This document shows positions 6,839 through 46,838 of a DNA stretch of 64,000 bases, piece by piece. The DNA lies in the sequence record ON528737; one strand, 5' to 3'. The position numbers and the translations under genes were made by a program. Positions within the stretch are counted from its first letter, which is position 1; each line of letters starts with the position of its first letter. The stretch is from Shigella phage ESh27. Below the pieces are notes generated by a model that saw nothing but the letters and a program-made list of their open reading frames with translations, did not search any database and was not told the origin of the DNA.

Positions 6839-6860
6839 GGGAGACTTCGGTCTCCCTTTT
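6839..6860 (+). terminator. Intrinsic terminator after gene 32 (GGGAGACTTCGGTCTCCC + TTTT)
   Basis: 7-bp GC stem, UUCG tetraloop, T-run. Confidence 0.8.
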
Positions 6861-21675: not shown

Positions 21676-21699
21676 GGGAGACTTCGGTCTCCCTTTTGT
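21676..21699 (+). terminator. Intrinsic terminator (GGGAGACTTCGGTCTCCC + TTTT), identical hairpin to the gene 32 terminator
   Basis: 18-nt hairpin with UUCG loop followed by T-run. Confidence 0.8.
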
Positions 21700-43563: not shown

Positions 43564-44847
43564 TTATTCATCTATAATAATTTTAGGCAATTTAACACCA
43601 AGTAAAACAGACAAGTCTGAACGTCCTGCCATTTTATCCATGTCCCCGCCATCAATTACTCTCGCTTCTTTTTCATCTTTTGCTACTGTGTAAGGATTTG
43701 CTGATAAAGCATATCTAACCAATAAACCTATAGATGGTTGTAAGCTTTCCGGATCAACTACAACTTTAAATGCACCGACATGTTCCGGGTCGTCTAAATC
43801 CATTCCTTCAGTGTATGGAGCATAAAAGATGGACCCTACAATTTCTTTTTCGCCGATATTTTCTACAACACCCACAATAACATAATCTAACGGACTGTTA
43901 GTATCGCAATAAAGCGGTAAACCATTAGCTAAGAACCCGTAAGCATTTTGTGAAAGATACTTATCATCTTCTGGTTTATGTTTTAACCAACCGGAAGCAG
44001 CAAGAATAGCAGCTGCACGAGCTGAAGCTACACAAAACGTCGCAGTATAAGTTGACTCTTTTTGAATGTGGGATACCATTTCACACACCATTCGATATAA
44101 CGAACGACCTGCTTCCGGAGCGGATGCATAGCTCAAGTCAATAAATCCAGTGTCAGTAATTCCAGTAACTTTATAACGTTTCGATACAGTAATTAAAGAC
44201 TGAAGAATATCTTTATTAATTTCATCAGCCATTTCAGTAGCAAGCAAATCTTCTAAGAAGTTAGGGGCATCAAATCCATTCGCTTCCAAATCTTGCGCTA
44301 ATTCAACCGTGAGACCGGTTTTAAGTTTACGAGATTTGACTGAAGTTTGCCATTTATTAATCTGGAATCTTGCATCAGAAATTTCGCTACCAGAGCTTTC
44401 AAATTTGCTTGTCACCGCTGCATCTGAAAATAACCGTACCTTTAAATGAACGACTGCAATCTGAAGAGCCAATTCTAGATCACTTTCTTGAATATCTGCA
44501 AATGGCGTATCTTCTAACACTTTATAGACGATATTATTATATTTGAAAAAATCGCCTTTATTTAGTGTGACTTTTGATTCTTCTGTGAGCTCGGTAATTT
44601 TTTCTCGGTCTACATATCCAGCTTCACCTGCATAAGTAGCACCAGTTTTAAACGTTAATTCGTTGTCTGGGTTAAGATATTTGATACCATAAAAAGCAGC
44701 AACAGGTTGATTAGTTCTTTGTGTTGCTACAATGTCAGAATATATTAATTTAGTCGTAGCGCGAGTCAAAGCAACGAGATTTGGGCGACCAATTGAGTTG
44801 CTAGTAGACGTTGTAGATTCACGCAATAATTTTTGGATTTTACTCAT
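43564..44847 (-). CDS. 24: Capsid vertex protein gp24
   Basis: 427 aa; near identical over long stretches to T4 gp24 (LRESTT...SIGRPNLVALTRATTKLIYSDIVATQRTNQPVAAFYGIKYLNPDNE). Confidence 0.96.
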   Translation of the reverse strand: MSKIQKLLRESTTSTSNSIGRPNLVALTRATTKLIYSDIVATQRTNQPVAAFYGIKYLNPDNELTFKTGATYAGEAGYVDREKITELTEESKVTLNKGDFFKYNNIVYKVLEDTPFADIQESDLELALQIAVVHLKVRLFSDAAVTSKFESSGSEISDARFQINKWQTSVKSRKLKTGLTVELAQDLEANGFDAPNFLEDLLATEMADEINKDILQSLITVSKRYKVTGITDTGFIDLSYASAPEAGRSLYRMVCEMVSHIQKESTYTATFCVASARAAAILAASGWLKHKPEDDKYLSQNAYGFLANGLPLYCDTNSPLDYVIVGVVENIGEKEIVGSIFYAPYTEGMDLDDPEHVGAFKVVVDPESLQPSIGLLVRYALSANPYTVAKDEKEARVIDGGDMDKMAGRSDLSVLLGVKLPKIIIDE

Positions 44848-44873
44848 TGCATTTTTCCTTATGTGATATAGAT

Positions 44874-44881
44874 TATTTATA
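44874..44881 (-). promoter_or_regulatory. T4-type late promoter (TATAAATA) for gene 24
   Basis: Plus tatttata = minus TATAAATA, ~27 nt upstream of gp24 ATG. Confidence 0.65.
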
Positions 44882-44887
44882 AAGATT

Positions 44888-44917
44888 GTTTACAACGTAT
44901 TTGGTATGTGATACTAT
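44888..44917 (+). promoter_or_regulatory. T4-type early promoter (GTTTAC ... TGATACTATAGAC) between late genes 24 and 23
   Basis: gtttac 44888-44893; tactat 44912-44917. Confidence 0.6.
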
Positions 44918-44947
44918 AGACTTATTAACTACAGAGGAGTAAACAAA

Positions 44948-45217
44948 ATGACTAAAGCACGTTTCTTACGAGATACTTTAAAAGTTCTGGAAGCTGAAGC
45001 GGTTAAGTTAGTAGAAAAATATGGTGCAAAAGTTAATGGTAATGCCTTCAACAAAGTATGGATGAAAGTTGATTCTGAAGCTCGAGCTAAAGGCTATTGG
45101 GCCACCGATAAACTTGCATCATTCAAAAACAAAGACGGTTCTCCAGCATATGTCCAAGAAGGTATGCCTAATTGGCAAAATATTTTGAAAACTTACATCG
45201 AAATTGCACAGAAATAA
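44948..45217 (+). CDS. Hypothetical early protein embedded between capsid genes 24 and 23
   Basis: 89 aa; strong SD gaggagtaaacaaaatg; own early promoter. Confidence 0.6.
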   Translation: MTKARFLRDTLKVLEAEAVKLVEKYGAKVNGNAFNKVWMKVDSEARAKGYWATDKLASFKNKDGSPAYVQEGMPNWQNILKTYIEIAQK

Positions 45218-45245
45218 AACCAAAAATGGGAGACCGAAGTCTCCC
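45218..45245 (-). terminator. Intrinsic terminator after gene 23 (minus-strand GGGAGACTTCGGTCTCCC + T-run)
   Basis: Third copy of the same 18-nt hairpin; on the minus strand followed by atttttg. Confidence 0.75.
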
Positions 45246-45269
45246 AAAATAAGATTTAATCAATTAAGA

Positions 45270-46838
45270 TTAGATGCCTTTTACATATACACGGCGGAAG
45301 TAAGCGTTCTTACCAAGGCTGTTCAGGATAGACGGCATACCGGACTGGATGCGAGCACCTGGAGCCTGCAGGGAACTTTCAGCAAACGGGTTAACACCGA
45401 TACCGTAACGAGTTTTAAAGCCCATTACCGGCTGGAAGTTCTTAGGATCGGAACCACGCAGTGGGGTAAGTGCAACGTAAGGAGCATAGTAAATACCTGC
45501 ATCCATTTCGTTAGCGCCTTTGTAACCAACGGTGAAGTAATCCTGTTTAGCATATTGGTCGATGTATACGCGGTATTTACCACCAAGTACACCGGCAAAT
45601 ACGGACTTAGTAGTGTCGGTATTAAAACCAGAAGCCAGACCCTGTGCAGCATAAGAAATGCCAGTATCAACTGAAGCCAGTACGTTAACTACGTTACGGG
45701 AAGCGATAATGAAGTTACCTTCACCACGACCGGTTTGACGAGCAATTTCAACTGCTTCTTTATCAATCTGGAACAACAGAGATTTAAAGCTTTCACCAGC
45801 CCAACGAGCACCACGGATATCAATCGGGTCCTGGAAGTCAAATACACCAGCTTTAGAACCCGGAGTCAGGGTCATACCAGATTTACCAACCTGAGCGGAG
45901 TAGTTAATCCAGTCAACAACTTCACGGTTGATTTCTAGCATAATTTCTGTAGCCAGGATACCGCTCAGTTCAGCATCAGCATCCATACCGTGTACTGCAC
46001 GGAGGTCTTGTGCCAATTCGATGGAGTAAGCTGCTTTCAGCTGACGAGATTTAGCTTCAATAACTTGTTTGTCGATACGGAAGCCCATTTCGTTCCATGG
46101 GTTATCAGTAGAACCGTTGAAACCTTCCTGGAGTTCAGCGATAGAAGTAGCCATACCTTCAGCGATTTCTACCAGTGCACCAGCTTCCATTTGTTTCTTA
46201 ATTTCAGCATCTAATTTAGTTGCATCGTTAGCACTAGCATCGATTGTTACTACAGCGGAAGCTTGCAGATATACAGTACCAGTTTCCTGGAAGAAGTGAG
46301 TATAGATATCACCTACAACGGTTTGTGTGCTAGCAGCCAACGCCGGGAATTTCTTAGCAGCGCCCTGACCAGAGAACATTGCATCCGGAGCATACATCGG
46401 ATGGAAAGCTTCTTTAGCGCCAGCAGCGATAGGGTCTTTACCATATACTGCACGGAGAGCAAATACCTGACCGGTAGGGCTGTTCATAGGCTGAACACCA
46501 CAAATATCAAAAGCGATCAGATTAGGAATAGCACGACGAACCATACCCATAACTGCTGGCCCAATCTGGGTTACTGCACCAGAGGTTTGACCTGCTGCGA
46601 TGTTCTGAGCATTATAACCGTGGTCACCACCAATTTCAGCTTCGGTCAAGAAAGAACCAAATGCCTGAGCGATTTTCTCGTCTTTATATTCAGGGGATAC
46701 TTCGAAATCTTTTTCCTGGTTTTCGAAGATTTTAGCGATAATAGCCTGCTTGCTATTAGCGATTTCCGGCAGGCCTTCACCTTCCAGCAGTTCTTTCCAT
46801 TTGTCTACGAGCTGAGCTTTAGTTTTGATAGTAGTCAT
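45270..46838 (-). CDS. 23: Major capsid protein gp23
   Basis: 522 aa; near identical to T4 gp23 (MTIKTKAQLVDKWKELLEGEGLPEIANSKQAIIAKIFENQEKDF...). Confidence 0.97.
   Translation of the reverse strand: MTTIKTKAQLVDKWKELLEGEGLPEIANSKQAIIAKIFENQEKDFEVSPEYKDEKIAQAFGSFLTEAEIGGDHGYNAQNIAAGQTSGAVTQIGPAVMGMVRRAIPNLIAFDICGVQPMNSPTGQVFALRAVYGKDPIAAGAKEAFHPMYAPDAMFSGQGAAKKFPALAASTQTVVGDIYTHFFQETGTVYLQASAVVTIDASANDATKLDAEIKKQMEAGALVEIAEGMATSIAELQEGFNGSTDNPWNEMGFRIDKQVIEAKSRQLKAAYSIELAQDLRAVHGMDADAELSGILATEIMLEINREVVDWINYSAQVGKSGMTLTPGSKAGVFDFQDPIDIRGARWAGESFKSLLFQIDKEAVEIARQTGRGEGNFIIASRNVVNVLASVDTGISYAAQGLASGFNTDTTKSVFAGVLGGKYRVYIDQYAKQDYFTVGYKGANEMDAGIYYAPYVALTPLRGSDPKNFQPVMGFKTRYGIGVNPFAESSLQAPGARIQSGMPSILNSLGKNAYFRRVYVKGI

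Follow-up and report, generated by a model that had tools for sequence, protein, structure and literature searches.

Autonomous promoter-gene-terminator units lying between late genes are known as the morons of lambdoid phages, and are typically expressed from the prophage. In T4-type phages, cassette exchange is mediated by PeSLs (promoter-early stem-loops), which flank ORFans; the mapped crossovers fall in the stretch that separates the −10 element from the ATG (Arbiol et al. 2010, PMC2839356; Comeau et al. 2014, PMC4122927). For phage RB69, the supplements of Nolan et al. (2006) list an early promoter, Pe:109605 (HMM score 29.9), a late promoter, Pl:109573, and a terminator designated '23-><-RB69ORF188c' (PMC1524935). 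T4 carries the segD gene between genes 23 and 24, and the review of Edgell et al. (2010) states that a promoter specific to segD could not be found there.

We analyzed a stretch of 64 000 nucleotides from Shigella phage ESh27 (sequence record ON528737), referred to below as the window. Its source is a Mosigvirus, an RB69-like T-even phage (Tevenvirinae). The minus strand of the window carries late structural genes and the plus strand carries early-type genes; in PhAPEC2 the corresponding stretch is annotated as Hoc, 24.3, 24.2, RnlB, gp24, 'hypothetical protein similar to RB69ORF188c', gp23, gp22 and gp21. The 501 nt around an 89-aa ORF between genes 24 and 23 were 98–99% identical to more than 100 Mosigvirus genomes (OLB35, phiC120, PhAPEC2 and APCEc01 among them), and the gene 24 product matched Mosigvirus and Tequatrovirus capsid vertex proteins at 95–100% identity (tblastn). 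Because gene 24 starts at position 44847 and gene 23 stops at 45270, both on the minus strand, positions 44848–45269 constitute the exact intergenic interval. The features of the locus are as follows.

43564–44847, minus strand: gene 24 (capsid vertex protein), left flank; a 427-aa ORF, gp24 in the PhAPEC2 annotation.
44874–44881, minus strand: T4-type late promoter of gene 24, TATAAATA, an exact match located 26 nt upstream of the gene 24 ATG.
44888–44917, plus strand: predicted early sigma-70-type promoter with −35 GTTTAC(A) and TG-extended −10 TGATACTAT, called from its elements, enrichment and conservation.
44934–44939, plus strand: Shine-Dalgarno sequence GAGGAG, with the ATG 8 nt downstream.
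44948–45217, plus strand: 89-aa basic protein starting MTKARFLRDTLKVLEAEAVK, a homologue of RB69ORF188c/189c, from the ORF list and a match to phrog_6003.
45227–45246, minus strand: hairpin GGGAGAC-UUCG-GUCUCCC, which serves gene 23 as its intrinsic terminator and bounds the cassette on the 3′ side, from the terminator scan.
45270–46838, minus strand: gene 23 (major capsid protein), right flank; a 522-aa ORF, gp23 in the PhAPEC2 and RB69 annotations.

The divergent ATGs of gene 24 and the 89-aa ORF are separated by exactly 100 nt. An earlier note on this DNA had described a Lys-rich plus-strand ORF inside the minus-strand late block, with a strong Shine-Dalgarno sequence and an early promoter sharing this gap with the gene 24 late promoter. 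The description was accurate: the ORF occupies 44948–45217, its product contains 13 Lys among 89 residues (pI 9.6), GAGGAG stands 8 nt before the ATG in a 5′ leader without significant RNA structure (z = 0.84), and T-even early-type elements at 44888–44917 adjoin the late box at 44874–44881.

The predicted early promoter is composed of GTTTAC at 44888–44893 (TTTACA at 44889–44894), TG at 44909–44910 and TACTAT at 44912–44917, with a spacer of 17 nt counted from TTTACA, or 18 nt between GTTTAC and TACTAT. Its −35 element lies 7 nt from the late box, and the two promoters are thus arranged back-to-back. Compared with the T-even early promoter consensus as described in PMC1524935, the site has the −35 GTTTAC, a spacer of approximately 17 nt, a −10 of the form TAnnnT, an AT-rich upstream region and an early-strand ORF downstream. 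A generic sigma-70 scan was uninformative in the AT-rich window (4 sites, compared with 6.7 expected). The phage-specific pattern GTTTAC-N17-19-TANNNT, however, occurred 12 times in the window compared with 3.0 expected, a number reached by none of 100 shuffles, and 11 of the 12 copies were on the plus (early) strand. The extended −10 with the initial transcribed motif, TABTATAGAC (TAnTATAGAC), was found 5 times (0.47 expected), and the late motif TATAAATA 19 times (7.6 expected).

The window's early promoter corresponds to RB69 Pe:109605, and the gene 24 late promoter to RB69 Pl:109573 (supplementary file 5). An alignment of six lineages, spanning the DNA between the gene 24 ATG and that of the gene downstream, showed that the late box, the −35 element and the TG-extended −10 element keep their positions and that the spacer is unconserved. 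The gene 24 late promoter is kept in all six, and the −35 element reads GTTTACA, or ATTTACA in T4 upstream of segD. Transcription would start near 44924, and the early timing of the predicted promoter is assigned from its sequence class only. Searches of the literature found no transcript, expression or phenotype data for any Mosigvirus and no transcriptome for segD, and nothing under 'anti-late RNA'.

In T4, the region upstream of segD (L004, 1231–1300, minus strand) contains ATTTACA-17-TATTAT with TG, at a position homologous to RB69 Pe:109605. This suggests that T4 has a homologue of the RB69 early promoter ahead of segD, a reading of the homologous T4 block with which the statement of Edgell et al. 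(2010) sits uneasily. The conserved promoter block of the 23/24 interval would then also front T4 segD, a gene reported to be promoterless.

The boundary on the other side of the ORF is formed by the hairpin at 45227–45246. In the terminator scan a T-run was present on the minus strand only, which identifies the hairpin as the gene 23 terminator. The plus-strand hairpin also folds (−13.5 kcal/mol, z = −5.1), but it is followed by AAAAUAAG, without a U-tract; read-through antisense to gene 23 is therefore plausible. No Rfam family matched near threshold in the 23/24 interval. The 18-nt UUCG-loop hairpin GGGAGACTTCGGTCTCCC has three exact copies in the window, at 6839–6856, 21676–21693 and 45228–45245. 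The first two are plus-strand terminators located approximately 35 nt upstream of early promoters that have the same −10/TAGAC motif, and these are PeSL-type composites; the third is the minus-strand gene 23 terminator.

The 89-aa unit resembles a PeSL + ORFan cassette in its strong sigma-70-type early promoter, its ORFan cargo at an exchange point and its association with a GC-rich stem-loop, but it fails two defining PeSL features. No stem-loop adjoins the promoter on its upstream side, where the gene 24 late promoter stands instead; the stem-loop is 3′ of the ORF and is oriented as the convergent gene 23 terminator. In addition, PeSL cassettes are located in hyperplastic regions, whereas this unit sits within the conserved late structural block, flanked by core genes 23 and 24.

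We next consider the encoded protein. Its match to phrog_6003 covers the full length (E = 2.1e-45, residues 1–89 against profile positions 1–90 of 90), and homologues of 84–93 aa share the invariant core M1, K3, F6, L21, N30-G-N-A-x-N35, A45, W51 and Q70. The dN/dS ratio was 0.04–0.25 within subfamilies, and all differences from PhAPEC2 were synonymous (dN = 0, dS = 0.056); the gene is under purifying selection. AlphaFold gave confident and concordant models for two subfamilies, with pLDDT values of 88 for the 89-aa protein and 94 for the Dhaka-type allele, although their mutual identity is only 33%. Both models have the order H-H-E-E-H, with helices at 3–25 and 31–48, a β-hairpin and a C-terminal helix. 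The pI was 9.2–9.9 in 13 of the 14 members computed, and 8.0 in the distant member P0021. From the profile match, conservation, dN/dS, fold models and basic pI, the 89-aa ORF is a genuine gene encoding a real protein. The protein is 30–38% identical between Mosigvirus and the Dhaka/Gapriver genera, compared with approximately 70% for gp24 against Dhakavirus, and the small gene evolves far more rapidly than the genes beside it.

For this protein, neither sequence nor fold comparison revealed a relative with a known function, in agreement with the earlier note, which had called its function unknown. The sole Pfam match, DUF4859, fell short of its threshold (17.9 bits; cut-off 22.6), NCBIfam and PADLOC searches returned nothing credible, PDB sequence profiles matched at E = 0.025 or worse, and phrog_6003, the sole PHROGs family matched, has no assigned function. 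No paper mentioning RB69ORF188c was found in the literature. The earlier note had named, as what would refute it, a conserved and already characterized T-even gene at this position. Half of this applies: the gene is conserved here, as described below, but it is not characterized. Two structural identities were considered and rejected. Membership of the Big_2/DUF4859 repeat domain had no individually significant domain match, and an HU/IHF-type fold, considered from the size, charge and α-α-β-β-α order, was supported by neither a Bac_DNA_binding profile match nor an HU-fold match.

Using tblastn, we found the small gene in 239 phage records, approximately 120 at ≥80% identity and 119 at <60%. 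In Gaprivervirus VR20, Dhakavirus WG01 and metagenomic T4-like contigs, the divergent copies share both slot and strand with the window's gene, and all Tevenvirinae carriers that were inspected have it between genes 23 and 24. It is a conserved resident of the 23/24 slot in Mosigvirus, Dhakavirus, Gaprivervirus and related metagenomic phages. The family is also portable, with members at other loci: one in an array of small genes without assigned function in the Vequintavirinae phage ABPH49, and one at the head of a small-gene array beside tail genes in a metagenomic contig (L024). Among the inspected neighbours of these two, none had a known function.

The closest described counterpart, RB69ORF188c/189c, is the same gene in the same place, with an interval 97% identical in DNA. 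Gene, early promoter, late promoter and terminator had already been annotated or predicted for RB69, and the layout is not new. The gene is, however, split in the RB69 reference, whereas it is intact here and in approximately 120 other records. In the reference (L015, 5292–5532), a +1 and a −1 indel with a mismatch cluster divide it into ORF188c (41 aa) and ORF189c (29 aa), which means either that the laboratory strain has a true pseudogene or that the old sequence contains errors. The small gene is also frameshifted in mogra and truncated in 310Ecol104PP. Since it is broken in these three, it is dispensable for propagation.

We compared the occupants of the 23/24 interval across T4-like genomes. 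T4 and RB18 carry segD on the strand opposite to genes 23 and 24, and segD is present in 53 of approximately 500 Tequatrovirus records (~10%), the rest having an empty interval of approximately 83 bp. In the short interval of fPS-90, the late promoter is directly followed by the terminator, with no early promoter. Among the phages inspected, Moonvirus Merlin, an Enterobacter phage, Klebsiella phages and Aeromonas UP87 likewise have no gene in the interval. In Tegunavirus phiR1-RT it holds an opposite-strand 504-aa ORF, g177, with a weak, sub-threshold REase_MTES_1575 match (L016, 604–2118), and the Acinetobacter phage KARL-1 (Lazarusvirus) has an opposite-strand 513-aa ORF annotated as a Hef-like homing endonuclease, without a Pfam match (L017, 557–2098). 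Krischvirus JK32 has a same-strand 50-aa ORF. Different endonuclease families may have colonized the interval. These varied occupants across genera indicate that the slot is genuinely variable and that nucleases have settled in it repeatedly.

SegD homologues were found in the interval of T4/RB18, ATK48, IME341 and PhiKpNIH-6. Mosigvirus ATK48 (L025, 1949–3035) carries a Dhaka-type allele of the small gene, approximately 31% identical to that of the window, followed 3 nt later on the same strand by a SegD homologue that is 58% identical to T4 SegD. SegD of the ATK48 type at ≥95% identity was found in 33 records. Dhakavirus IME341 has the same two-gene order, and in these two phages SegD begins 3–6 nt downstream of the small gene. 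The ATK48 alignment begins at residue 4 of T4 SegD, so that translation in T4 may start at the second ATG, which follows the annotated one by 9 nt. The ATK48 flanks are 97–100% identical to the window up to approximately 44926, past the −10 element, and again from approximately 45300; between these points, the right one of which is approximately 30 nt inside gene 23, ATK48 is WG01-like. ATK48 thus represents a block replacement of the cassette, a clean natural swap beside essential capsid genes, and its left crossover lies between the −10 element and the ATG, as in PeSL cassettes. Either co-conversion driven by the endonuclease or recombination at the conserved promoter would account for the swap, as would the two together.

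The T4 segD locus is similar to the present one in interval and strand, in a unit that ends at the gene 23 terminator hairpin, and in the succession of late TATAAATA and (G/A)TTTACA-17-TAnnAT with TG. The encoded proteins are unrelated, however, and the small one lacks a GIY-YIG domain; moreover, where Mosigvirus and Dhakavirus have segD, it follows the small gene as an addition and does not take its place. The earlier note was correct that T4 carries segD at this place and on this strand, and its term 'cargo slot' is borne out by an interval that may be empty or hold the small gene, segD or opposite-strand ORFs of approximately 500 aa. Its proposal that the small gene replaces segD is no more than half correct, as the gene is resident in at least three genera and SegD follows it in ATK48 and IME341. 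At least four states are seen at the 23/24 interval, a defined exchange point: no gene, the small gene, the small gene with SegD, and an endonuclease alone. Natural mosaics such as ATK48 offer clean material for the analysis of SegD homing and co-conversion beside essential capsid genes.

On the whole, we regard it as probable that the feature is a self-contained, single-gene early transcription unit, a resident accessory cassette between late capsid genes that is exchanged as a block. Host sigma-70 RNA polymerase would fire the early promoter at 44888–44917 in the first minutes of infection, a timing that follows from the promoter's class, and the open leader and strong ribosome-binding site would allow efficient translation of the 89-aa basic protein. 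The unit would end at the gene 23 terminator hairpin, with some transcripts probably running antisense into the 3′ end of gene 23. Block exchange would place its left crossover within the conserved promoter or directly behind it, and its right crossover in the last ~30 nt of gene 23; SegD-type endonucleases, when present in these genera, lie immediately downstream of the small gene. The protein is dispensable for laboratory growth and is kept by selection in nature. Such a cassette is similar to lambdoid morons in being an independent unit with a non-essential gene between conserved structural genes, present or absent among relatives; unlike them, it belongs to a strictly lytic phage and has a promoter of the lytic early type. 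Among the early ORFan cassettes of T-even phages the feature is an ordinary one that had already been annotated, located in an instructive exchange hot spot.

The product is a selected, foldable, basic 10-kDa protein, dispensable and encoded behind an early-class promoter. We infer that its target, which may be a nucleic acid, belongs to the host or a competitor and is engaged within the first minutes. More specifically, it might be an accessory of host takeover or counter-defence that binds, at an early stage of infection, a nucleic acid or an acidic host factor, although we put this forward only tentatively. It is doubtful that it is the founder of an unrecognized early-effector family, lacking detectable structural relatives and directed against a host defence or nucleic-acid-associated factor specific to Mosig-, Dhaka- and Gaprivervirus hosts, with alleles that reflect conflict. 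If it were, the two ~30%-identical allele types swapped with SegD would mark a diversifying conflict, host-phage or phage-phage, at a capsid-linked hot spot. Being small, early, dispensable, fast-evolving and maintained in nature, the protein is a reasonable candidate for anti-defence or host-takeover screens. Its practical value is modest, since it is one among many T-even early ORFans, and the result on the locus is more useful.

An alternative is that the unit acts mainly at the level of RNA or transcription, silencing the capsid genes early, either because early read-through of the hairpin yields RNA antisense to the gene 23 3′ end or through occupancy of DNA overlapping the gene 24 late promoter, and that the ORF is secondary. 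The plus-direction hairpin lacks a U-tract, as the antisense route would have it, but in VR20 the terminator at this place is bidirectional, so that read-through would be prevented. Likewise, the short distance between the early −35 element and the late TATAAATA box would suit promoter occupancy, and T4 retains the promoter block without the small ORF, yet most T4-like phages do without any promoter here. Purifying selection on the protein sequence, the strong ribosome-binding site with its open leader, the confidently predicted and conserved fold, and the occurrence of family members at loci unrelated to capsid genes all argue for a function of the protein. We therefore consider an RNA-level role improbable.

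A connection with homing-endonuclease biology, in which the protein would be a degenerate remnant or DNA-binding module of such an enzyme, or an accessory or immunity factor for SegD-type enzymes that target this interval, is suggested by the recurrence of SegD and of other large opposite-strand ORFs in the interval, and in particular by the close succession of the two genes in ATK48 and IME341. However, each also occurs without the other. The gene is present without an endonuclease in VR20, WG01 and approximately 120 Mosigvirus records with the window's allele, where the lack of any insertion between ORF and terminator means that segD is absent, and Tequatroviruses and a Klebsiella phage have SegD without the small gene. 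We examined the identity directly and rejected it. The small protein has no GIY-YIG or other nuclease domain and gave 1.2% in hhalign against T4 SegD, which itself does match SegE_GIY-YIG (Pfam); kinship to SegD, phiR1-RT g177 and the KARL-1 Hef-like protein received hhalign probabilities of approximately 1% or less. This connection is very unlikely.

The location between the genes for the major capsid and vertex proteins, invariable among the Tevenvirinae carriers inspected, could mean that the protein is a capsid-assembly accessory factor, sited there because it works with them. This is extremely unlikely, because the gene lies on the opposite strand behind an early-type promoter with no late TATAAATA upstream in its own direction, is absent from most T4-like phages with near-identical capsid genes, is broken in viable isolates, and has relatives away from capsid genes in ABPH49 and L024. 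Finally, a chance ORF in an intergenic spacer, which a short sequence annotated only as a hypothetical protein might suggest, is refuted, with practically no likelihood left, by a full-length family of 84–93 aa conserved to ~30% identity, dN/dS well below 1, pLDDT of 88–94 and the strong ribosome-binding site.

Several minor observations were made in the course of these searches. A word-indexed protein search gave 8 and then 20 family proteins, and an exhaustive HMM search of 1.84 billion representatives gave only 10 matches. Two of these 10, large repeat proteins of the Big_2 type (P0022 and P0024), were rejected as relatives: their scores are sums over 9–11 repeats of 2–12 bits each, and they were discarded because no repeat was significant alone and the matched region is predicted to be helical. 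In another metagenomic protein, P0020 (160 aa, from a 701-nt ENA contig), the C-terminal part equals that of a Dhaka-type member exactly but is joined to an unrelated N-terminal part, and the protein is most likely an assembly chimera. Beside the slot, Mosigvirus and T4 have a single gp24, and Dhakavirus, Gaprivervirus and two metagenomic relatives (L002, L003, L010 and L013) have two tandem gp24 paralogues. In many Mosigvirus records, the 501-nt query (44800–45300) also matched a second place by megablast; as the 64-kb window contains no second match, these genomes carry a repeat elsewhere.
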